30,300 nucleotides of DNA, from the NCBI GenBank assembly GCA_016840065.1, contig JAEOTB010000073.1, forward strand, positions 1 through 30,300. The letters run 5' to 3'. The notes beneath the pieces were generated by a model that saw nothing but the letters and a program-made list of their open reading frames with translations, did not search any database and had not been told where the DNA came from. This DNA comes from Candidatus Hermodarchaeota archaeon. Lineage in GTDB: Archaea; Asgardarchaeota; Hermodarchaeia; Hermodarchaeales; Hermodarchaeaceae. Both the position numbers and the translations under genes were made by a program. How positions within the stretch are numbered: position 1 is the stretch's first letter; every line of letters starts with the position of its first letter. Shown one piece after another: positions 10,531 to 20,718 of this stretch.

Positions 10531-11100
10531 TTAAAGGTCGAATTGTTCGCTTCGCTCAAGGGATTTGACGACTTCAAACGCTAGTAGGGTGAAGACCTTC
10601 ACGACGTTCATACCATTCTTTGCGCTAGTTTCAAGATAGGAGAGCTGTAACTGCTCTGCAAAGGTTTCCCCCTGAGCAGCTGTCACCGCCTCTTTGAGAT
10701 CAGCCTTGTTACCCACTAACATCGTGGGTATTATTCCACAAATACTCTTCACCCTATCTAACCAGCCTCTCACATTCGCTAGGGTTTGTGGAACAGTCTT
10801 GTCAAAAACAACAACAGCACCCTTTGCTCCCACATAATACTTCTCAAGAACAGGACCAAACCTTTCCTGACCAGCAGTATCCCATAACTGCATCCTCAGC
10901 ACCTTATCCTCAACAGCCACGTTCTGGACAAAGAAGTTAACCCCTAGAGTTTGAATGTACTCTGGTGAGAAGAAGCCCTTAGTGAACCTGACCGCGATAC
11001 TGGTTTTACCTACTGCTGCATCACCGAGTACAATGACTTTGGCCCGATAATCATAGGGCACTGGAGGGTCGCGTTCCTTTGATTCAATTGATGGAGTCAT
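10531..11100 (-). CDS. Rab-like small GTPase 1
   Basis: G1 GDAAVGKTS, G2 TLGVNF, G3 WDTAGQERF, G4 NKAD, G5 ETSAK. Its start overlaps the upstream longin stop (ATGA). Confidence 0.95.
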   Translation of the reverse strand: MTPSIESKERDPPVPYDYRAKVIVLGDAAVGKTSIAVRFTKGFFSPEYIQTLGVNFFVQNVAVEDKVLRMQLWDTAGQERFGPVLEKYYVGAKGAVVVFDKTVPQTLANVRGWLDRVKSICGIIPTMLVGNKADLKEAVTAAQGETFAEQLQLSYLETSAKNGMNVVKVFTLLAFEVVKSLERSEQFDL

Positions 11101-11915
11101 AGGATTTTCATCACCAAAAGGTCGGTTAGTTCCCAGGCAATCAGCCGGTCCCTCTCAGCTCCAATAAGGGGTACTATGTGCTTGAAGAACAGACTCTGAT
11201 AAGCTTCTGCAGGTAATAGACGCTGCGTAAGGATGAACAGATCACGGAGAATTCGGCCCAGAGCTCTAAGCATGCCAGAATAATCTATACCTTCAACATC
11301 GATGTTTTCAAAGAACACGTTACCCTCGGGATGAACGGTCAGCCCTGATAAGGGGGAGCCAGAGTCGATGTGAGTTTTGAATATCTTGACGATTTCTCCC
11401 CAATTATCTTGACGCGTTTGATCGTCAAAGAACTTCTGGAGAATCGTGTTAAAGAACACTGTGAAGATGTCTAGGGTGTCTATAGCCTTTGCTGTGATTA
11501 GACTTCTTTCAGCTTGCTCCCAGTTTGACACGTACTTGCCCACGACCTTATCAAAGGTGTTGAACTGATACTCGTCTGGCTCTGATTCGGTAATAGCAGG
11601 TAGGTGGTTACTAAACATCTCGACGAATCGTTTGTTCAGCGTTAGGAGATACTCACTCCATCTTTCCACATTCACATTTGCCTCAGTGAAAAAGATGAAG
11701 AGTAAATCATTTTCTTCATCAATTTGGAAGAGAACCCAGAGGTTATCAAAACAGATGTAATTGACAAACTTGGTAGATAGATCCTTTGCTAGAAGTTGTA
11801 GTTTGACTAATTGAGTGGAGAGATGAGTGGGGTCGGTATTCATCGCTTTCCAGGTTTTACTGAAAAGGTGAACCCCACCTTGCCAGCTAGTTATCATGAA
11901 ATTGTAAAGTGCCAT
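11097..11915 (-). CDS. Longin-like domain protein with C-terminal helical domain (copy A)
   Basis: N-terminal beta-beta-alpha-beta-beta-beta-alpha pattern (LYNFMITSWQGGVHLFSKTW..DPTHLSTQL..LLFIFFTE). Colinear paralog of 14160..14975. Confidence 0.72.
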   Translation of the reverse strand: MALYNFMITSWQGGVHLFSKTWKAMNTDPTHLSTQLVKLQLLAKDLSTKFVNYICFDNLWVLFQIDEENDLLFIFFTEANVNVERWSEYLLTLNKRFVEMFSNHLPAITESEPDEYQFNTFDKVVGKYVSNWEQAERSLITAKAIDTLDIFTVFFNTILQKFFDDQTRQDNWGEIVKIFKTHIDSGSPLSGLTVHPEGNVFFENIDVEGIDYSGMLRALGRILRDLFILTQRLLPAEAYQSLFFKHIVPLIGAERDRLIAWELTDLLVMKIL

Positions 11916-12095
11916 CTTGCTTTTTGACCTCGTTTTCCCGAATCTGAATATTGTCGTACTTGTTAATAAACGTGCCCTGCCTGTTAAATTAATTTTCCCA
12001 GTAACGATTCAGCAGGAATTGCATCCTGAAGGAGGTTCTTCATTTGTGAAACGTAGATACTTCCAACTCTGAAGAATGGCAAGGGTCAACGATGG

Positions 12096-12647
12096 CTAGT
12101 AACCCTTAGATGTCTTGTCAATGTACTCTATGATCTGGGGTGCGAGAAGGGTGAAGATTTCTGTTGTGCCCGTTCCAGTCTTTGCGCTGGCCTCTAGAAA
12201 GCTGAGTCCATGGGTGGTCGCAAACTGTTGTCCAAACTCATAACTTATTGCCTCGGCGAGGTCAGCCTTATTCCCTACTAAGATGATGGGAATATCACCT
12301 GCACCCTCCTTTATCTCCTGAATCCAATGATCCAATTGAGTGTGAGAGCTAGACTTATCGTAAACCAGGACAGCCCCTTTGGCCCCAAGATAATAGCGTT
12401 TCCGCAAAGGACCGAACTGCTCCTGGCCTGCGGTGTCCCATATTTGGAGTTTTAAGACCTTGTCGCCCACCTTTATCTCGTGGATGAAAAATGTGACACC
12501 AATCGTTGAGATATACTCGGGATTGAAGAATCCCTTGCAGAAGCGTACGATTAAGCTGGTTTTTCCTACACCGGCCTCTCCTACTACGATGACTTTGGCT
12601 GCATGAGTAATGTGCCTGTCTTGCGTGGTTGGTGGGGTATCTGTCAT
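12096..12647 (-). CDS. Rab-like small GTPase 2
   Basis: GEAGVGKTS, TIGVTF, KLQIWDTAGQEQF, NKAD and EASAK motifs, with a GGTGA SD upstream. Confidence 0.95.
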   Translation of the reverse strand: MTDTPPTTQDRHITHAAKVIVVGEAGVGKTSLIVRFCKGFFNPEYISTIGVTFFIHEIKVGDKVLKLQIWDTAGQEQFGPLRKRYYLGAKGAVLVYDKSSSHTQLDHWIQEIKEGAGDIPIILVGNKADLAEAISYEFGQQFATTHGLSFLEASAKTGTGTTEIFTLLAPQIIEYIDKTSKGY

Positions 12648-12751
12648 AGTAACTCTATCACCAGGGGTTCTACTAGGTGTATGCTTCTAGCCCCGACTGG
12701 TTCTGATTTCAATATGATAACAGGGTAAAGGGGTGTTTTAAAATTTAGTTG

Positions 12752-13315
12752 TTAGTAGGGATGAGCCATTTGGTTGCTTACTTGGGATGCAAGGAGGTCA
12801 AAAATCTTCGTTGTGTGGTGGCCAGTCTTGGCACTGGCTTCTAGGAAGGTAAGCCGATGAGCTAGAGCGAATTGCTTACCCTGTTCAAAGGTGATGATTT
12901 CTTCAAGGTCAGCTTTGTTCCCGACAAGAACTATGGGAACATCACCCATATTCGTCTTGATCTCGTTTAGCCAGTATCCTAACTTCTCAAAGCTTTCTTC
13001 GTTAGTTTTATCATAGACCAAGATAGCCCCTTTCGCCCCATCGTAATACAATTGACGAAGGGAGCTGAACCTTTCTTGCCCTGCTGTGTCCCAAATCACT
13101 AAGCGTAGAACCTTATCTGTCATATTGAAGTCTTGGACGTAAAAGTTCACGCCTATTGTTAGAATATATGAAGGATTGAAGATGCCTTTCACGAATCTGG
13201 TGATGAGGCTGGTTTTTCCTACAGTAGCTTCGCCTATGACAATTACTTTTGCAGTGTGTGAGTGGGTTGGAGAGCTTTGTTGTAGATCGGTATCTGTTGT
13301 TGTATGGATTGTCAA
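12752..13315 (-). CDS. Rab-like small GTPase 3
   Basis: GEATVGKTS, TIGVNF, WDTAGQERF, NKAD and EASAK motifs. TTG 13315 gives 187 aa, exactly colinear with GTPase 4. The ORF-track start 13372 is an alternative. Confidence 0.93.
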   Translation of the reverse strand: MTIHTTTDTDLQQSSPTHSHTAKVIVIGEATVGKTSLITRFVKGIFNPSYILTIGVNFYVQDFNMTDKVLRLVIWDTAGQERFSSLRQLYYDGAKGAILVYDKTNEESFEKLGYWLNEIKTNMGDVPIVLVGNKADLEEIITFEQGKQFALAHRLTFLEASAKTGHHTTKIFDLLASQVSNQMAHPY

Positions 13316-13458
13316 AGTAGGGTCATCACTATGACTCGAATTCTCTTCTACCAATTTTGAACACCAATTCATTTCGTAGCAAGTCTATTTGTCGCCGTAG
13401 AGCGATGTTTGTTGGAACTGATATCCCTTGTCGCCGCCCTTATACTTCATTATTAATT

Positions 13459-13466
13459 TATATAAA
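13459..13466 (-). promoter_or_regulatory. Candidate archaeal TATA box (TTTATATA) upstream of GTPase 3
   Basis: AT-rich island in the intergenic gap. The minus strand reads AGAAAGGTTTTTATATAAATT, a purine-rich BRE-like element followed by TATA. Confidence 0.35.
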
Positions 13467-13599
13467 AACCTTTCTATAATATATGCAGCAGAAGAGTAGC
13501 CTTGAAGAGCGGCTTGTCCTAGGTACTTCAAGGAGACCTCTCTGAATTTTCAACGGTTTCGATGAAAGTAATACGAAAGTGTCAGAGTGAACAAGATAG

Positions 13600-14163
13600 T
13601 CAGTAGTGACGTGACAAATAGTTGCTCACCTGAAAGGCAAGTAAGTTGAAGAGCCTCACCGTTTGGTGACCAGTCTTTGCACTTGCTTCTAAGAAGGTTA
13701 GTCTGTGAGCCATGGCGAATTGCTTTCCACGTTCAAAGGATATGATTTCCTTGAGGTCAGCCTTATTCCCTACGAGAATCACTGGGATATCACCGGCGTG
13801 TTGGCTAATCTCTTTCAGCCAGTATTCTAGCCGCTGAAATGTTTCTTCACTGCTTTTATCATAGACTAGAACAGCACCCTTGGTGCCGAAGTAATAGCGC
13901 CTGCGAATGGGGCCGAATCTTTCTTGTCCCGCAGTATCCCAGATTTGTAGGCGAAGGACTCTATTTGGTAAATAGATGTCTTGCACGTAGAAATTCACTC
14001 CTATTGTCAGGATGTAGGATGGTTTGAAGATGCCCTTCACGAACCTCACGATGAGACTGGTTTTTCCCACAGTGGCTTCACCGACAACAATCACCTTTGC
14101 AGCGTGCGTATATACTGGAGGTTCCTTGGAGAGGCGGGCTGTTGTTGTGTCGGGGACCGTCAT
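13600..14163 (-). CDS. Rab-like small GTPase 4
   Basis: GEATVGKTS, TIGVNF, RLQIWDTAGQERF, NKAD and EASAK motifs. ATGA overlap with the upstream longin gene. Confidence 0.95.
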   Translation of the reverse strand: MTVPDTTTARLSKEPPVYTHAAKVIVVGEATVGKTSLIVRFVKGIFKPSYILTIGVNFYVQDIYLPNRVLRLQIWDTAGQERFGPIRRRYYFGTKGAVLVYDKSSEETFQRLEYWLKEISQHAGDIPVILVGNKADLKEIISFERGKQFAMAHRLTFLEASAKTGHQTVRLFNLLAFQVSNYLSRHY

Positions 14164-14975
14164 AGGAGCTGCACCACCAATGATTCGAATAGATTGTAGG
14201 CTAATAATCGGGATCGTTCTTGGCGGATAAGAGGGATCATATATCTGAAGAAGAGCGCCTGATGGCTTTGGGGTGTTATGATTCTTTGAACTAAGGTAAT
14301 CAGGTCCTTGAGGGTTCTACTCAGGGAGTCTAGCATCAGTGTGTAATTGACGCTTTGAAGGTCCTCAATCCCGTACTGTGCACCGCCCTGAGGGCTGATA
14401 GTGAAGCGATGTAGGGGAATGCTCCCTGAGACGTTATCTCGGAATGCCGCTTGAAGATGCCCCCAACAATCTTCTCTCATCTTTGGTGTGAGAAACTTCT
14501 GAAGAAGGACATCGAAGAAGAGGGAGAAGACTTCCAAGACATCCATTACCTTAGCTTTGTCTAGTGTGATCTCACCTTGTTCCCAACCGGAAATTAAGCT
14601 ATCAGCGAGTTCGTTGTAAGCCTGAGTGGGTAGGGATCCTTCTATGGACTCAAGGTGCGTTAGGTTCGAATGGAAAATCTGGATGAAGCGTGTGCTCAGA
14701 ATGTCAAGATATTCCTTGAAACGGGTTGCATCGCCTTTAGCGTCTGTGATGAAGACGAAGAGCAGTTTGTATTTCTCATCTACACTGAAGAAGAAACGTG
14801 AATCCTCTAGTGTTATCATATTGACATGCTGAGATGTGATGCTCAGTGCCATCATCTCAAGACTCGCAATGAGCGCCGAGAGTAAATCTGGATCCTTCCC
14901 TACTTTAACCCAAGTTCTGTTGTAGACGTGTTTGCCACTTTTCCAGGCAATTACATAGAAACCGTGAATTGCCAT
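14160..14975 (-). CDS. Longin-like domain protein with C-terminal helical domain (copy B)
   Basis: IHGFYVIAWKSGKHVYNRTW..DPDLLSALIASLEMMA..ITLEDSRFFF..LLFVFITD matches the longin/sedlin-like pattern. Confidence 0.78.
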   Translation of the reverse strand: MAIHGFYVIAWKSGKHVYNRTWVKVGKDPDLLSALIASLEMMALSITSQHVNMITLEDSRFFFSVDEKYKLLFVFITDAKGDATRFKEYLDILSTRFIQIFHSNLTHLESIEGSLPTQAYNELADSLISGWEQGEITLDKAKVMDVLEVFSLFFDVLLQKFLTPKMREDCWGHLQAAFRDNVSGSIPLHRFTISPQGGAQYGIEDLQSVNYTLMLDSLSRTLKDLITLVQRIITPQSHQALFFRYMIPLIRQERSRLLAYNLFESLVVQLL

Positions 14976-15170: not shown

Positions 15171-16757
15171 TTAAGTGGGTCGGATTCGTGAGTCCACGAT
15201 TTCCTGGAATTTGAGGCCTCCAGCTTTCTCGAGGAGGACATCCAGTTCCATGAAGTGGATGACCGGCGTAACTTCAGTTTGAGCTTTGGTTAAACGCTTG
15301 AGTTCACGCTTCAGGGATGCCTTGTTTGCACCAGAGCTAGGTGCCACATTCAGAGATAATACGTCTAACGAATAGGGGTCATCGGGATTCGATTTGGTGA
15401 CCACAATTTGTACCTCATCTACTTCTTGTAAGGCTAGAAGCGATTCACGAAGCGCGGTGAGGTTGACGGTAGCGCCCTTGATTTTCTCCTCTTGAATGCC
15501 CATCACTTGCATTTGGGCACCGATTTCAGTTTCTCGAGAGATGTTGTAGAAGAGGGGCATCTCTAATCCGCACTGCCCGCATTTTCCGGTTTCTACCTTG
15601 TCGACATGGTCGCCCATGAGATAGCCTTCAAACATGGAGGCGGTACCGTCCACGTGGAAAATAGTGATGTAGCCGCCTTCTTCGGGGCTTGTGAATTCAT
15701 AGCCTCCGCTGTCATCGGTGAATTTCACGAAACGAACAGCAAAGGCTAGAGGGGAAAGATTGTGATATCCGCCCTTCTCAGCACATTGACAAGCGACACC
15801 AATCTTAGTCTCGCTGGCAGCCCAGCCTCCAATCACACGAGTCTCGGTCATCCCTACCTCTGCAAGGGCGTCCTTAATATCATCGATAACCCGGTCATAA
15901 ATGCGTTCACCAGCAAGTAGCACAATACCTCTTTTTTCCAGTTTAGGCTTCATCGCCTTTAATGCACGACAATAGATATTCCTGAAGTACCCAGGCATGG
16001 CAGCAAATCCTGTTACCTTGAATAACTCCGCTAATTGCACGAGTTTCTCGGTAGGAATCGCACCCCCCGCAGTGGTCCGCAAACAAAAGTCTGCCATCTG
16101 CATTAGGCCACCATCGACTCCAAAGAAGCCCAAGTGTGGGGCGCAGGGGAAGAGGTTCTGCGCCCGTAGAGTGAACCCTTCTTCAACCCATGGGTCTATT
16201 GCCATCATTCCTGATTTGGCCATGTTTGCTCGCATCAACTCATCATCATAATGTGTTAGGAAAACTGGTGAAGGAAGCCCTGAAGCTCGTCCTGAGGAGA
16301 ACCAGAAGAATCGGGGAGTGAATCGGTGTGCAATGTGTTCTAGAAGCTCTTGACGGGCTTTAGAAGCGCCCAGTCGCAGTTTTACCTTGAGCCCTCGTCG
16401 AAAGACAAAGCTTCTTTCTTCTTTATAGCCTGCCTCCTTGTAGTAGCTCAACAGGTTCCCGATTATCTTTGCAGGGTCGCGCTCTTTTCCGTCTGCCTCT
16501 CGGGGGTTCAGAACGAATTCACGGAGTCCTCCCTTGTAATCAGCTTTTCTGACCAGGGGAAGCTTGTATTTCTCCCAGTCTGTGGGGGTCTTCAAGTCAA
16601 AGGGATCAACCTTGTGCTGCTTGAATAGTTTCCTGTAGAATGGATGATTGGGATAGACCTGGTAGCGGATGAATGCTCTAAACTTTCTATCCTGTATTTC
16701 CTCTATCTCCGAATACCGCATTGATTTGAGTTCTTTGAATGTAAGAAGTCGCTTCAA
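15171..16757 (-). CDS. Phenylacetate-CoA ligase (PaaK)-like adenylate-forming enzyme
   Basis: HPFYRKLF..LPLVRKADY N-terminus, P-loop FSSGRASGLP, LLAGERI, GGWAASETK and YLMGD. TTG start with an AGGAG SD. Substrate unknown. Confidence 0.8.
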   Translation of the reverse strand: MKRLLTFKELKSMRYSEIEEIQDRKFRAFIRYQVYPNHPFYRKLFKQHKVDPFDLKTPTDWEKYKLPLVRKADYKGGLREFVLNPREADGKERDPAKIIGNLLSYYKEAGYKEERSFVFRRGLKVKLRLGASKARQELLEHIAHRFTPRFFWFSSGRASGLPSPVFLTHYDDELMRANMAKSGMMAIDPWVEEGFTLRAQNLFPCAPHLGFFGVDGGLMQMADFCLRTTAGGAIPTEKLVQLAELFKVTGFAAMPGYFRNIYCRALKAMKPKLEKRGIVLLAGERIYDRVIDDIKDALAEVGMTETRVIGGWAASETKIGVACQCAEKGGYHNLSPLAFAVRFVKFTDDSGGYEFTSPEEGGYITIFHVDGTASMFEGYLMGDHVDKVETGKCGQCGLEMPLFYNISRETEIGAQMQVMGIQEEKIKGATVNLTALRESLLALQEVDEVQIVVTKSNPDDPYSLDVLSLNVAPSSGANKASLKRELKRLTKAQTEVTPVIHFMELDVLLEKAGGLKFQEIVDSRIRPT

Positions 16758-16843: not shown

Positions 16844-18871
16844 TCAGTTCTTGATTGGCGGCATTACGTTACAGTAACCATTCATTACTTCAAGCTTGTC
16901 TTGGTTGAGGACTTTGAAGCTTAATCGCACAAGGTTCTTTTCAGGTACTTTTTCTGTAACTTCCACAATCGCTGTAATCTTGTCCCCTGGGTATACCGGG
17001 GCTGTGAAATTGACCTTCATATTGTAGGCTAGAGTGCCGAGTCCTGGGAGTTTCATCCCAACCACTCGTGCTACTAGAGCGCCCCCTATGGGGCCATGAG
17101 CTATCCTTTTCCCAAAAATGGTTGTCGCTGCATAGTCTTGGTCCATGTGGAGCGGGTTGTAATCGCCCGACATCTTGGCGTATAACTCGATGTGTTCTTC
17201 TGTAACCCTCATCACACCCTCAGCTGTTTCACCGATTTTAATCTCTTCCAGACTTTTTCCAAGAGTAAACCGCGGCGATTCATCTGTGGCGATGGTTTCT
17301 GCGGGTGCATCAGAGACCAGTCCTTGAAAGGTCTGAGGAGTGAACCTGAACATTCGGGCGAACTTCATTAACAACTCCATATCGTCGGTGTCGATAACGA
17401 CCCGCTTGGTCATCATTGCCTGCATCGCATCGAGTTTTCCGAAGAGAATCTCTCGCCAGGTCGCTGAATCCGTTTTGATCGTCATGGTGGGTACTGGTAT
17501 CTTTTTTTGTATAGCAGAGCATGTTTGGTTGTCGATGCTTAGAAGCCACGGGTCATGATCGGAAAAGATGAATTGAATCTGTGCAGTAATTCCTTTCGCC
17601 CGTTCTGAGCGGAACCCATTCGGTATCGCTGCCATGAGCGTATCGAAGCCGATGGCTTCAAGGTCAACTCCACTAGGTGGTTGCGCAGCACCGCGTTTCT
17701 CTTCGATGTACACTTCTCTTTGAATCAGGAACCGCATGATTTCAGAGGTTCCTCCACCAATAGTGCCCAGCCTAGCATCTAGGTAGAACTGACTGAGTGG
17801 ATAGAAGTCCTCCACATAGCCAGCCCCACCGCAGATCTGGATAGCCTGGTCACAGATTTCCACCGATGCTTCGGTGGCGAAGAGCTTCGCGATGGTGGCT
17901 TCCTTGGTGCAAGGCAGGCCCTTCTCGATCATTCTCGCAGCCGTCACCAGAAGCAATCGTGAGGCGCGAATCTTCGTTGCCATGTCTGCGATTTTGAAGG
18001 AGATCGCTTCAAAGCGAGAAATAGGACGGTCGAACTGGATACGCTCTTGGGAATACTTGACCGCCACTTCGAAGGGGGTCCGCATACACCCCAGGGCTTC
18101 TGCGGCGATACCTATCCGTTCAGAGTCCAGCTCATCCATCAGGATCAGAAAGCCTTGATTGACCTTGCCGAGGAGGTTCTCCTTGGGCACTTTCACATCC
18201 TTGAATTCGAGGTGAGAGGCGTGGACGCCCTTTCGTCCCATGAGTTTGTAATCCTTTGTGGCGGTGAATCCCTTCCATGAGGTTTCAACGATGAAGGCAG
18301 ACATCCCGCTCTTACTATCCACTCCGGGGTCGGTGATGGCAAATACTACGATGTGATCCGCGATACTGCCATTGGTGATGTAGCGCTTCTCTCCATTCAG
18401 TATCCAGCATTGCTCCTTCTCGTTCCACACTGCGGAGGTTTCCATACCCGCGGTATCGCTGCCCACCTTGGGTTCAGTTATGGCTAGCGCACTAATTTTC
18501 TCGCCCTTCGCCAAGGGTTTGAGGTATTTTTGCTTCTGTTCCTCGCTCCCAAAGCGGAGAATGGGGATAGCGCTTAAGGTACAGCTGGCACCAAACATCA
18601 TCGTGGCGGCAGGACACACCGCGGATATTTCTTCGCCGGCAATCAGCTGGTACATGAAGGGTTTACCAGACCCCCCATACTCCTGTGGAACCATTAACCC
18701 CGAGAGGCCAAACTCGCCTAATTTCCGGAAGAAGAGCCTGTAGTCAAAATCATCCTCGATAATCTTCTCGCGCATGGGGAGGATTTCTTCTGCAACCCAT
18801 TTTCGCACCTTCTCTCGAAATTCTAGTTCGTCAGGGGAGTAGAGGAATTGTTCATCATTAATGCGTGTCAT
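16844..18871 (-). CDS. Fusion protein: acyl-CoA dehydrogenase + SCP2 sterol-carrier domain + MaoC-type (R)-enoyl-CoA hydratase
   Basis: ACAD motifs ALAITEPKVGSD, LNGEKRYITNG, RIQFDRPI and GGAGY. SCP2-like region FRSERAKGITAQIQF..W..GKLDAMQAMMTKRVVI. MaoC motif YAKMSGDYNPLHMD..FGKRIAHG..FTAPVYPGD. ATG 18871 is preferred and GTG 18883 is an alternative. Confidence 0.9.
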   Translation of the reverse strand: MTRINDEQFLYSPDELEFREKVRKWVAEEILPMREKIIEDDFDYRLFFRKLGEFGLSGLMVPQEYGGSGKPFMYQLIAGEEISAVCPAATMMFGASCTLSAIPILRFGSEEQKQKYLKPLAKGEKISALAITEPKVGSDTAGMETSAVWNEKEQCWILNGEKRYITNGSIADHIVVFAITDPGVDSKSGMSAFIVETSWKGFTATKDYKLMGRKGVHASHLEFKDVKVPKENLLGKVNQGFLILMDELDSERIGIAAEALGCMRTPFEVAVKYSQERIQFDRPISRFEAISFKIADMATKIRASRLLLVTAARMIEKGLPCTKEATIAKLFATEASVEICDQAIQICGGAGYVEDFYPLSQFYLDARLGTIGGGTSEIMRFLIQREVYIEEKRGAAQPPSGVDLEAIGFDTLMAAIPNGFRSERAKGITAQIQFIFSDHDPWLLSIDNQTCSAIQKKIPVPTMTIKTDSATWREILFGKLDAMQAMMTKRVVIDTDDMELLMKFARMFRFTPQTFQGLVSDAPAETIATDESPRFTLGKSLEEIKIGETAEGVMRVTEEHIELYAKMSGDYNPLHMDQDYAATTIFGKRIAHGPIGGALVARVVGMKLPGLGTLAYNMKVNFTAPVYPGDKITAIVEVTEKVPEKNLVRLSFKVLNQDKLEVMNGYCNVMPPIKN

Positions 18872-19059
18872 AGCTAGAATCACCAGCGCTACTAGTAAAC
18901 GGAATACTTCTGGTAGAGGGGAGTATTCTGATGTTTCTTCAAAAGTATTTGGAGTGTAGCAAATTCCGATTAGACGCGCTTTTTGAACAAAGGCAGAGAA
19001 ATTAAGTGGAGTGGTTCATCAGTCGCATTAAGTTCTCTGGAAAAGGAAGATGATGTAAG

Positions 19060-20718
19060 ATGCGATTCTTTGGCCATCTAATCAAAGGAGATGTCACCTC
19101 CCCTGATAAAGGAAGAACCGGTCGATTCCCGAATATGAATTTGGCAATCGAGGATCCCCGCCTGCTTTTTGCCATGGCGCTCAGGGGCCAGGGATCACTG
19201 AGCCGCATTGCTGCGAGATATTTCGGTGGTCTACTCCCGGAAAAAACACCAGAAATCCGATTGTTAAAGGATTACATTCGCTGTCATGGTTATCCCTCAG
19301 CATCCAAGGATGAGATTGACGACATCATCTTTGCCCGATATGCCATTGGTGGAGTAAAGGAAACCACGACCGCTTGTGAAGAAGCCAGCCGGATAAAGCG
19401 GTTAATGCACAAGGAACTTCACAAGACCGGAGCAGGCCTTACACTCCGCGACCGAATGAAGAGCATTCCAATAATGAGTAAATTCATGTGGAAACACCTT
19501 GACTCATTCAAGGAAATCGCCATCGCCGAAGGTACCCCTGTGAAACTCTTTGACTGGCAGGCTGAGACAACCTTCAAGACCCTTTGCAAAGAAAAGGCTG
19601 ACTTCATCACCGACAGAATAGGGCCAAAAGAGATTCCTTGCAGCGTAAAAGGGGAGAAGACCTTGTTGTATCGTTTCCCCTTTGGAGCGGTCGGCATCTT
19701 CCCACCGTATAATGCAGCCCTAGGTCTCGGGTTCATGGCGATAGTCTCATCCTATTATGCTGGGAACGCCAACGTTACCCGAACCCCTGCAAGAATGCCC
19801 TTAACAAACATGGAATTGGCATATGTTCTACGGAACCTTATGGAAGAGCTGGAATTTCCTACTAGCGCCTTTCAGGCAGTGATTGGGCCGGCACGCCCAA
19901 TAGCGAAGTACATGATCAATGAATCTCCCCTGAATGCTATGGTTTACTATGGTGATTCAGATGTGGGGTTGCAGCTAATGTCTCAGGCAATCAGGAGGGG
20001 CTTGCACTTTGTACCCGAACTAGCGGGGAGTGGAGCAAGCTTGGTCTGGAAAGATGTTGATGTGAACAAGGTTGCTGATTTCGTCACGCATGCCCGGTTC
20101 TTCGGTTCAGGACAGATATGTCTGGCAGCAAAGAGGCTATTCCTCCACGAAGCAATCTACGACGAATTCGTTGAGGCCCTGGTAGAGAAAAGTGAGCAGT
20201 TGAAGGTTGGGATTCCAGCAGACCCCAAGACCGATTTGCCTGCTCTCGGAAGCCGAGCCCTCTACCAGATTATAGACATGACGGAGGAGGCTCTAAAGAA
20301 AGGAGCTAAGCTAGAAACCGGAGGCTATCGAATCGATGTCCACGGTGAAGGAGACGATTCAGGATTATTCTACAAACCAACCATTCTCAGTGATGTTCCC
20401 CTCGAATGTAAGATGTGGTACCACGAAACCTTCGGCCCAGTTCTGCCCATTATGAAAGTGAAGAATTTTGACCAGGCAATTGCTCAGGCAAACAATACAC
20501 CCTATGGTCTTCGGACTTCAGTGTATAGTGATGACCCCACCATCTGCCAACGGTTCTTCGATGAAATTGAGGCCCCAGGAATCGCCGTGAATACTGACCA
20601 CCTTCACTTCGATACCTTCTATCCTCATCTAGGCGGCTTGAAGACTAGTGGAGTCTTTGGTGGCAAGTATTTCTATGAAGTCTTGACGTATCTGAAATAC
20701 CGTCATTTCCCAGCGTAG
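19060..20718 (+). CDS. Aldehyde dehydrogenase family protein (divergent, with N-terminal insertion)
   Basis: FPFGAVGIFPPYN, catalytic Glu PELAGSG, catalytic Cys GQICLA, ETFGPVLPI and ANNTPYGL. Confidence 0.88.
   Translation: MRFFGHLIKGDVTSPDKGRTGRFPNMNLAIEDPRLLFAMALRGQGSLSRIAARYFGGLLPEKTPEIRLLKDYIRCHGYPSASKDEIDDIIFARYAIGGVKETTTACEEASRIKRLMHKELHKTGAGLTLRDRMKSIPIMSKFMWKHLDSFKEIAIAEGTPVKLFDWQAETTFKTLCKEKADFITDRIGPKEIPCSVKGEKTLLYRFPFGAVGIFPPYNAALGLGFMAIVSSYYAGNANVTRTPARMPLTNMELAYVLRNLMEELEFPTSAFQAVIGPARPIAKYMINESPLNAMVYYGDSDVGLQLMSQAIRRGLHFVPELAGSGASLVWKDVDVNKVADFVTHARFFGSGQICLAAKRLFLHEAIYDEFVEALVEKSEQLKVGIPADPKTDLPALGSRALYQIIDMTEEALKKGAKLETGGYRIDVHGEGDDSGLFYKPTILSDVPLECKMWYHETFGPVLPIMKVKNFDQAIAQANNTPYGLRTSVYSDDPTICQRFFDEIEAPGIAVNTDHLHFDTFYPHLGGLKTSGVFGGKYFYEVLTYLKYRHFPA

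Follow-up and report, generated by a model that had tools for sequence, protein, structure and literature searches.

A lineage-specific fusion of acyl-CoA dehydrogenase, SCP2 and MaoC hydratase domains in Thorarchaeia and its possible role in acyl-CoA oxidation

What is the function of a gene that joins the enzyme of the first step of beta-oxidation to a lipid-carrier domain and a hydratase in one polypeptide? In this study, we addressed this question for an open reading frame (ORF) from a Candidatus Hermodarchaeota archaeon (assembly GCA_016840065.1, contig JAEOTB010000073.1), which lies in a stretch of 30,300 nucleotides, referred to as the window. The ORF encodes an acyl-CoA dehydrogenase (ACAD), an internal SCP2 domain and a C-terminal MaoC-type hydratase. 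It is a real, conserved and uncharacterised gene, representing a new arrangement of well-known parts and not a new kind of enzyme. We propose, with confidence slightly above an even balance, that its product is a bifunctional dehydrogenase/(R)-hydratase for hydrophobic acyl-CoAs, conserved in Thorarchaeia and equipped with a lipid-holding domain.

Domain architecture and catalytic residues

The ORF is located on the minus strand (16844..18883) with 679 uninterrupted codons counted from a GTG at 18883. Starting from an ATG at 18871, it yields 675 residues, the length of the database homologues, with the stop codon at 16844-16846. Pfam residue numbers mentioned here refer to the 679-residue GTG-start translation (P0001), from which 4 is subtracted to obtain the 675-residue numbering. 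The gene is divided as follows.

16844..18871, minus strand: whole coding sequence of the ACAD-SCP2-MaoC fusion, 675 residues, alternative GTG start at 18883
17696..18835, minus strand: acyl-CoA dehydrogenase module with N-terminal, middle and C-terminal ACAD domains, residues ~13-392
17327..17662, minus strand: SCP2 domain, putatively lipid-binding, residues ~404-515, placed by Pfam SCP2, AlphaFold2 (AF2) model and fold match
17237..17326, minus strand: linker of ~30 residues from SCP2 to hydratase, variable alignment columns, predicted local distance difference test score (pLDDT) below 50-55
16847..17236, minus strand: MaoC/PhaJ-type single hot-dog domain, predicted (R)-specific enoyl-CoA hydratase, residues ~546-675, containing SGDYNPLH

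The three-domain architecture that the first-pass annotation had read from this ORF was recovered by Pfam in the same order, with Acyl-CoA_dh_N at residues 17-128 (E 9e-30), Acyl-CoA_dh_M at 132-230 (7e-24), Acyl-CoA_dh_1 at 242-391 (2e-45), SCP2 at 425-512 (E 2.4e-9, 37.9 bits against a cut-off of 21.3) and MaoC at 558-649 (E 1.3e-21). In whole-genome profile scans, SCP2 was matched at 17348-17611 and MaoC at 16937-17212 of the window, and both fall inside the ranges initially assigned to these domains (about 17330-17650 and about 16844-17260). None of the NCBIfam equivalog cut-offs was reached by the fusion, the best score being obtained for the acryloyl-CoA reductase AcrC with 343 bits against 640. 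The description of the protein as a bifunctional ACAD and MaoC hydratase with an internal lipid-binding domain is well supported.

With its three-domain fold (PF02771/PF02770/PF00441) and a Glu base, the N-terminal module is assigned by sequence to the ACAD superfamily. IGGGT of the fusion aligns with IYEGT of MmgC (5lnx) and C. difficile Bcd (5ol2), the position of the base in medium-chain ACAD (MCAD), and the MCAD Glu376 position is therefore occupied by Gly. Loss of this Glu had been deduced earlier from the motif TIGGGTSEI, together with a Glu in LDSER at the position used by isovaleryl-CoA dehydrogenase (IVD) and long-chain ACAD (LCAD), and both assignments hold in the alignments: LDSER stands opposite LNVGR/LDGGR of MmgC and Bcd, and a 41-residue query around it aligned free of gaps to residues 232-268 of human IVD and 240-277 of LCAD. 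Glu251 of LDSER, which is invariant across 57 homologues, corresponds to position 254 in human IVD (1ivh) and to position 261 in LCAD (8w0t), known from the literature as the catalytic bases of these enzymes. The fusion is thus like IVD and LCAD in having Glu at the Glu254/Glu261 position and Gly at the Glu376 position, but overall it is nearer to MmgC, Bcd and short-chain ACAD (SCAD), with about 40% identity, than to IVD (34%). Orthology to isovaleryl-CoA dehydrogenase was rejected, since IVD structures rank below Bcd, SCAD and MmgC and no equivalog cut-off was reached. In Foldseek searches with the AF2 model, the ACAD part matched MmgC (5lnx) with a TM score of 0.93 and ACAD structures generally with about 0.9; the closest solved ACADs include MmgC, SCAD, Bcd of the bifurcating complex (5ol2_C, 4l1f) and CarC (6fah_C). 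An IVD-type base also occurs in two-domain relatives of the fusion and in its nearest stand-alone Asgard ACADs (49-55% identity), among them a paralog on contig C105 of the same genome, and as judged from these sequences it is not special to the fusion. IYEGT is kept in two other ACAD paralogs of this genome.

The full-length AF2 model reached a pLDDT of 77.6 and a predicted TM score (pTM) of 0.56. A model of residues 396-675 reached a pLDDT of 90.5 and displays two domains, with the SCP2 part mostly at 84-97. This part adopts the SCP2 fold, with Z-scores of 11.2 to human SCP2 (8af2), 11.5 to the C-terminal domain of E. coli YjcS, 10.5 to A. fulgidus SCP2, 10.5 to mosquito SCP-2 with palmitate and 10.4 to yeast SCP2 (by identifier, 3bn8 and 2ksi at Z 10.5 and 4jgx at Z 10.4). 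Since the Pfam score (PF02036) lies above the gathering cut-off and the SCP2 alpha/beta fold is matched, the middle region is SCP2, an assignment flagged at the outset for checking. By analogy with these proteins, it is a putative binder of a lipid or of the acyl-CoA tail.

The hydratase domain shows 40% identity to P. aeruginosa PhaJ1 (5cpg, E 2.7e-28) and also matches human HTD2 (3ir3) and A. caviae PhaJ (1iq6), on which the modelled hot dog superimposes with Z 21.1 and an rmsd of 1.1 Å over 131 residues. SGDYNPLH aligns with the Asp/His motif of the PhaJ/HTD2 proteins, in agreement with the intact D-x-N-P-L-H motif noted initially. PhaJ (1iq6, 5cpg) and HTD2 (3ir3) share with the fusion the single hot-dog fold, 32-40% identity and the conserved Asp/His motif, but are stand-alone proteins of ~135-155 residues that feed polyhydroxyalkanoate (PHA) synthesis or mitochondrial fatty-acid synthesis, whereas the domain described here is tethered to ACAD-SCP2. 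From knowledge of the family, (R)-stereospecific hydration is predicted for it. Alternatively, one or both accessory domains could be non-catalytic, for example a regulatory or scaffolding hot dog, and steroid hydratases are known to include MaoC partners without catalytic activity. No specific observation on this protein speaks for such a role, and an intact Asp/His motif and an intact fold, both almost without variation among homologues, argue against it; combined with the alternative that the ORF is an assembly or annotation artefact, we consider this explanation very improbable. The stretch of ~30 residues from SCP2 to the hot dog is variable among homologues and modelled with low confidence, suggesting a flexible tether.

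Authenticity, distribution and evolutionary order

An artefact is contradicted by the same colinear gene in about 30 independently assembled genomes, by which misassembly, a check set in the first-pass annotation, is ruled out. Logan contigs from two marine-sediment runs, which may be source samples, agree, spanning the whole ORF with zero differences. Short 'joints' in the Logan matches are 22-33-nt hits to ACAD motifs of other organisms and not rearrangements. Among the runs listed as containing this stretch, there was no RNA dataset. The same annotation had called the architecture unfamiliar and asked whether it is already common or characterised; by database and literature searches it is neither.

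In a large protein database, about 85 clusters of 668-783 residues share all three domains with the fusion (69-85% identity). Database names describe them as proteins of Thorarchaeota or Promethearchaeota metagenome-assembled genomes (MAGs), 'acyl-CoA dehydrogenase family protein', with the JGI label 'AidB-like ACAD/acyl dehydratase/putative sterol carrier'; the fusion is already present in public databases under such automatic names. About 25 further clusters of 513-532 residues comprise ACAD-SCP2 only and come from Hodarchaeales, Heimdall- and Odinarchaeota MAGs. Full-length fusions with 70-85% identity occur in about 30 genomes of two Thorarchaeia families. Among 400 genomes of the phylum, full-length matches were found in family f1 (14 of 18 genomes besides that of the window) and in two genera of family f6, and the two-domain form in f19 (8 of 22) and f33; the remaining families, of which there are about 29, gave no match at this level. 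In GenBank, MAGs of the genus to which the window belongs are labelled Hermodarchaeota. When 1.84 billion protein representatives (50% identity) were searched with the SCP2-MaoC half, one full three-domain cluster and one fragment were returned, along with one stand-alone SCP2, a stand-alone MaoC described below and unrelated arrangements, namely a short-chain dehydrogenase/reductase (SDR) with n SCP2 copies and a double hot dog, MaoC-SCP2 and FMN reductase-SCP2. The single three-domain cluster among these representatives indicates that the architecture is specific to the Thorarchaeia lineage, and the conservation of all three domains in about 30 genomes argues for selection on the whole fusion. 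Literature searches found no paper describing an ACAD-SCP2-MaoC architecture: the Hermodarchaeota paper merely lists generic Acd/Ech/Hadh genes, and in an Asgard lipid-transfer preprint SCP2 is mentioned only as a domain common to archaea, bacteria and eukaryotes (PMC12139934).

In a quick maximum-likelihood tree of the ACAD part, rooted on MCAD-type paralogs, all SCP2-bearing forms fall into one clade (SH-aLRT 99), in which the three-domain forms are nested inside a basal grade of two-domain forms. This is consistent with a stepwise order of ACAD, then ACAD-SCP2, then ACAD-SCP2-MaoC. The two-domain proteins of Hodarchaeales, Heimdall- and Odinarchaeota MAGs belong to the same ACAD lineage (64-69% identity), have the same SCP2 and partly share the linkage to an aldehyde dehydrogenase described below, but lack the hydratase. 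A stand-alone MaoC (P0123), 66% identical to the fused domain, comes from one Hodarchaeales MAG; a search of the genome contigs with it yielded nothing but the fused genes of two MAGs labelled 'Hermodarchaeota'. In four Hodarchaeales-type (Hod) genomes, the best MaoC is 36-39% identical and located far from the ACAD-SCP2 gene. One NCBI MAG protein (P0086, 783 residues) displays a fourth domain, giving ACAD-SCP2-MaoC-ACBP. The 87 residues at its C-terminus resemble acyl-CoA-binding proteins (ACBP) of yeast and human (E 1.6e-17 to yeast ACBP), pointing to long-chain acyl-CoA ligands. Animal peroxisomal ECI2 also bears an ACBP domain.

Proposed reaction, its direction and its substrates

In the reaction sequence we favour, a neighbouring aldehyde dehydrogenase (ALDH) and acyl-CoA ligase would supply the substrate, leading from aldehyde to acid to acyl-CoA. 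The ACAD would then oxidise a hydrophobic (long-chain or methyl-branched) acyl-CoA to the 2-enoyl-CoA, with electrons passing from the FAD-dependent ACAD to a CarDE-like electron-transferring flavoprotein (ETF) of the genome, and the MaoC domain would convert this enoyl-CoA by hydration into (R)-3-hydroxyacyl-CoA, with the acyl tail held by SCP2. On an ACAD dimer, two hydratase domains may associate in the manner of PhaJ dimers. The genes next to the fusion are the following.

19060..20718, plus strand: aldehyde dehydrogenase, 552 residues, divergent from the fusion gene, Pfam Aldedh
15171..16757, minus strand: 528-residue protein directly downstream of the fusion, weak PaaK/F390-synthetase-type acyl-CoA ligase similarity

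The 552-residue ALDH adjoins the fusion gene in all 11 of the 11 Thorarchaeia loci examined, and in one Hodarchaeales-type genome an ALDH is located directly downstream of the two-domain gene in the same direction. It resembles non-acylating NAD(P) ALDHs; its N-terminal extension of ~120 residues has no family match, Pfam Aldedh starting at residue 124. The 528-residue protein shows weak N-terminal similarity to phenylacetate-CoA ligase/F390 synthetase (PDB 2y27, E 0.0025; NCBIfam FlxY, 1e-9) and no Pfam hit, and its adjacency to the fusion is specific to this genome and was not found in related loci. The two-domain gene of the Hod loci is accompanied by a divergent FadD-like long-chain acyl-CoA ligase together with PAP2 and alpha/beta hydrolases. 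Catabolism of free acids is suggested by the conserved ALDH and the adjoining ligases (FadD-like in the Hod loci, weak PaaK-like here), while hydrophobic long or branched chains are suggested by SCP2 and, in one variant, by ACBP. The consecutive dehydrogenation and (R)-hydration of hydrophobic acyl-CoAs, already put forward in the first-pass annotation, is accordingly retained here as the most economical reading, one that fits the ALDH and ligase neighbours; it is the direction of the reaction that is challenged by a reductive alternative and by the type of ETF available.

This challenge arises from the rest of the genome, which is 83.9% complete, a scope that applies to all absences and to each 'only' stated for it in the following. 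The fusion holds the only MaoC domain (PF01575) found, and its hydratase is therefore not redundant. Two crotonases, a classical thiolase, several 3HCDH genes and at least three thiolase/DUF35 pairs are present. On contig C82 (L030:266-3362, plus strand), an ADP-forming acyl-CoA synthetase-type gene (CoA_binding/Succ_CoA_lig), an archaeal-type thiolase and DUF35 (OB_ChsH2_C) are co-directional, a cluster that would link thiolysis to substrate-level phosphorylation. Two EtfAB pairs are located on contigs C66 and C68, outside the window, and the presence of ETF genes as such counts in favour of an oxidative ACAD. However, EtfA of both pairs carries an N-terminal 2x[4Fe-4S] (Fer4) domain, and both subunits match CarE/CarD best (E 3.5e-114 and 1.3e-73), followed by 5ol2, 7qh2, 4kpu and 7koe, so that the bifurcating CarDE, Bcd-Etf, LctBC and T. 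maritima ETFs are matched far better than non-bifurcating ETFs. On C66 (L022, 1-8555), EtfB/EtfA adjoin methylmalonyl-CoA mutase and MeaB. An identical order of a 302-residue protein, EtfB and EtfA is seen on C66 and C68, as paralogs or strain variants, and the 302-residue protein is without Pfam or NCBIfam match.

Several points have to be held against an oxidative bifunctional enzyme. All ETFs found belong to the bifurcating type, with CarDE, Bcd-Etf and LctBC as their closest matches; in characterised systems, such ETFs drive enoyl-CoA reduction and not acyl-CoA oxidation. The ETF genes of this genome do not adjoin the fusion gene. No obvious candidate for an (R)-specific 3-hydroxyacyl-CoA dehydrogenase was found, the single FabG-like SDR of the genome residing in a polysaccharide cluster, and a class III PHA synthase was likewise not found. 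The fusion family is uncharacterised, and the putative channelling between the domains draws no support from the AF2 model, in which the inter-domain geometry is uncertain (pTM 0.56). PHA synthesis as a sink for the (R)-product was rejected, given that no class III PhaC was found in this 83.9%-complete genome.

The bifurcating ETFs and the lack of an evident (R)-specific next-step dehydrogenase make a reductive role a serious rival, which we rate as possible, although clearly less probable than oxidation. The fusion would then act as dehydratase and enoyl-CoA reductase in fatty-acid synthesis independent of acyl carrier protein (ACP), in reverse beta-oxidation or in fermentation: MaoC would dehydrate (R)-3-hydroxyacyl-CoA, the ACAD and the CarDE-like ETF would reduce the enoyl-CoA with NADH, reducing ferredoxin at the same time, and SCP2 would hold the growing chain. 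The place of Bcd (5ol2_C, 4l1f) and CarC (6fah_C) among the closest solved ACADs, the Fer4-bearing EtfA proteins with their CarE/CarD-like scores and the thiolase/DUF35 pairs are all in line with this direction. So is the archaeal fatty-acid synthase of Sulfolobus, in which a MaoC enzyme (MaoC-HCD) dehydrates (R)-3-hydroxyacyl-CoA in synthesis (doi 10.1101/2024.07.05.601840). However, Bcd and CarC retain the MCAD-type Glu, which the fusion ACAD does not, and a non-acylating NAD(P)-type ALDH and acid-CoA ligases as neighbours feed free acids to catabolism and are unneeded for synthesis. Furthermore, reduction would be left without a candidate (R)-specific ketoacyl-CoA reductase, none having been found, and the location of the ETF genes on other contigs weakens this direction as well. 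On balance, we prefer oxidation.

Within an oxidative role, the substrate could be narrower than hydrophobic acyl-CoAs in general. Downstream of the fusion, the 528-residue gene takes the place of a gene of the geranylgeranyl-reductase family (TIGR02032, 199 bits) which the two other fusion-bearing genomes of the genus have there, located 3-17 nt behind the fusion gene in this genus. A gene of this family is directly downstream in 6 of the 11 Thorarchaeia loci, all from f1 and not including the window, and in genus g2 a polyprenyl (GGPP-synthase-like) synthase gene lies between or nearby. FixC-type ETF dehydrogenase was rejected as an identity for this flavoprotein, as FixC scores reach 41-75 bits against 199 for the geranylgeranyl-reductase family. 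Its loci in related Thorarchaeia are as follows.

L017:9184-11518, plus strand: geranylgeranyl-reductase-family locus
L002:3545-4777, plus strand: geranylgeranyl-reductase-family locus
L003:3531-4787, plus strand: geranylgeranyl-reductase-family locus

The adjacency may reflect an operon that ties the fusion to isoprenoid metabolism, and the enzyme would in this case act on methyl-branched acyl-CoAs derived from phytol or from archaeal lipid side chains. An IVD-like site would accept a 3-methyl branch, yielding a 3-hydroxy-3-methylacyl-CoA that is cleaved by a lyase without a 3-hydroxyacyl-CoA dehydrogenase step. This would agree with the base at the IVD/LCAD position and with the lack of an evident (R)-3-hydroxyacyl-CoA dehydrogenase, and in animals SCP2/SCPx and MFE-2 serve branched-chain oxidation. 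However, the linkage to geranylgeranyl reductase and prenyl synthase is confined to one family, being absent from the window, whose genome has the ortholog on another contig (C128), and from f6, where an RsmB methyltransferase is located downstream of the fusion; a simple explanation may be that synteny with housekeeping lipid genes was inherited. Ordinary stand-alone paralogs have the IVD-type base too, and no lyase partner was identified. We consider a dedicated isoprenoid-acid enzyme improbable and keep to the wider range of hydrophobic acyl-CoAs for the proposed dehydrogenase/(R)-hydratase.

SCP2 domains occur four more times in this genome, two of them fused to FMN reductases and two stand-alone. 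The fused ones (L009:2620-3696 and L010:2607-3716, both minus strand, on contigs C20 and C70) are paralogs of ~360 residues with an NADPH-dependent FMN reductase/flavodoxin-like part and a C-terminal SCP2, of which a metagenomic relative (P0172, 644 residues) has three SCP2 copies. The stand-alone proteins comprise 119 and 140 residues (L012:3135-3494 and L011:2780-3202, both minus strand, on contigs C122 and C75), one gene being convergent with an MCAD-type ACAD and the other located beside an iron-containing alcohol dehydrogenase. From this placement, SCP2 seems to accompany redox and lipid enzymes repeatedly in this organism. The remaining content of the window is typical for Asgard archaea, with four Ras-family GTPases and WD40, HEAT, TPR, LRR and RING proteins; at 10531-14975 (minus strand), four tandem Ras/Rab-family small GTPases are interleaved with two proteins of ~271 residues without Pfam matches.

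Relation to known systems and implications

The first-pass annotation had compared the fusion to peroxisomal MFE-2, and this analogy can be kept only in a loose sense. As in MFE-2 (HSD17B4) and SCPx, a beta-oxidation enzyme is tied to SCP2, and the MFE-2 hydratase is also an (R)-specific member of the MaoC superfamily. However, MFE-2 contributes an SDR dehydrogenase, the third step, whereas the fusion has an ACAD, the first step, at its N-terminus; hydratase 2 of MFE-2 is a double hot dog, whereas the fusion has one hot dog of ~130 residues of the PhaJ/HTD2 type; and SCP2 is C-terminal in MFE-2 but internal here, between ACAD and hydratase. The Pfam scan of the fusion returned no adh_short/KR hit and no PF22622 (MFE-2_hydrat-2_N), a domain which MFE-2-like proteins from the same representative search do show, and MFE-2 hydratase 2 matches the fusion hydratase with E 2.4e-7 compared to 2.7e-28 for PhaJ1. 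Having neither an SDR nor a double hot dog nor a C-terminal SCP2, the fusion is not a member of the MFE-2 family. Metagenomic MFE-2-like proteins (P0127, P0135, P0141, P0166 and P0260; 799-1084 residues) consist of SDR, one to four SCP2 copies and a double hot-dog hydratase 2.

Bcd-EtfAB and CarCDE offer a second point of reference, to which the fusion is linked by an ACAD ~40% identical to Bcd (5ol2_C) and by the CarDE-like ETFs of the genome including their ferredoxin domain. It differs from them in lacking the Bcd-type Glu (IYEGT), in its two extra domains and in not being clustered with etfAB.

With all parts stemming from well-known families, the gain lies in pathway and evolutionary context and not in new chemistry: a conserved, lineage-specific fusion attaches a lipid carrier to beta-oxidation catalysts, as peroxisomal enzymes do. 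At its widest, the finding could mean that Thorarchaeia run an (R)-specific oxidation of long or isoprenoid-branched acids aided by carrier domains (SCP2, sometimes ACBP), with the fusion as entry enzyme, an extension we regard as unlikely. If true, it would constitute an archaeal parallel, even an evolutionary forerunner, of the peroxisomal enzymes MFE-2, SCPx and ECI2, which attach SCP2 or ACBP to beta-oxidation catalysts, and in its most specific form 3-methyl-branched isoprenoid acyl-CoAs would be converted to a 3-hydroxy-3-methylacyl-CoA handed to a lyase. The way in which Asgard archaea, the closest known relatives of eukaryotes, deal with fatty and isoprenoid acids is relevant to the 'lipid divide'. 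Three questions could be answered by characterising the fusion: the identity of the lipids that these sediment archaea oxidise or produce, a possible reversal of acyl-CoA oxidation by their bifurcating ETFs, and the reality of substrate channelling through SCP2 tethering.

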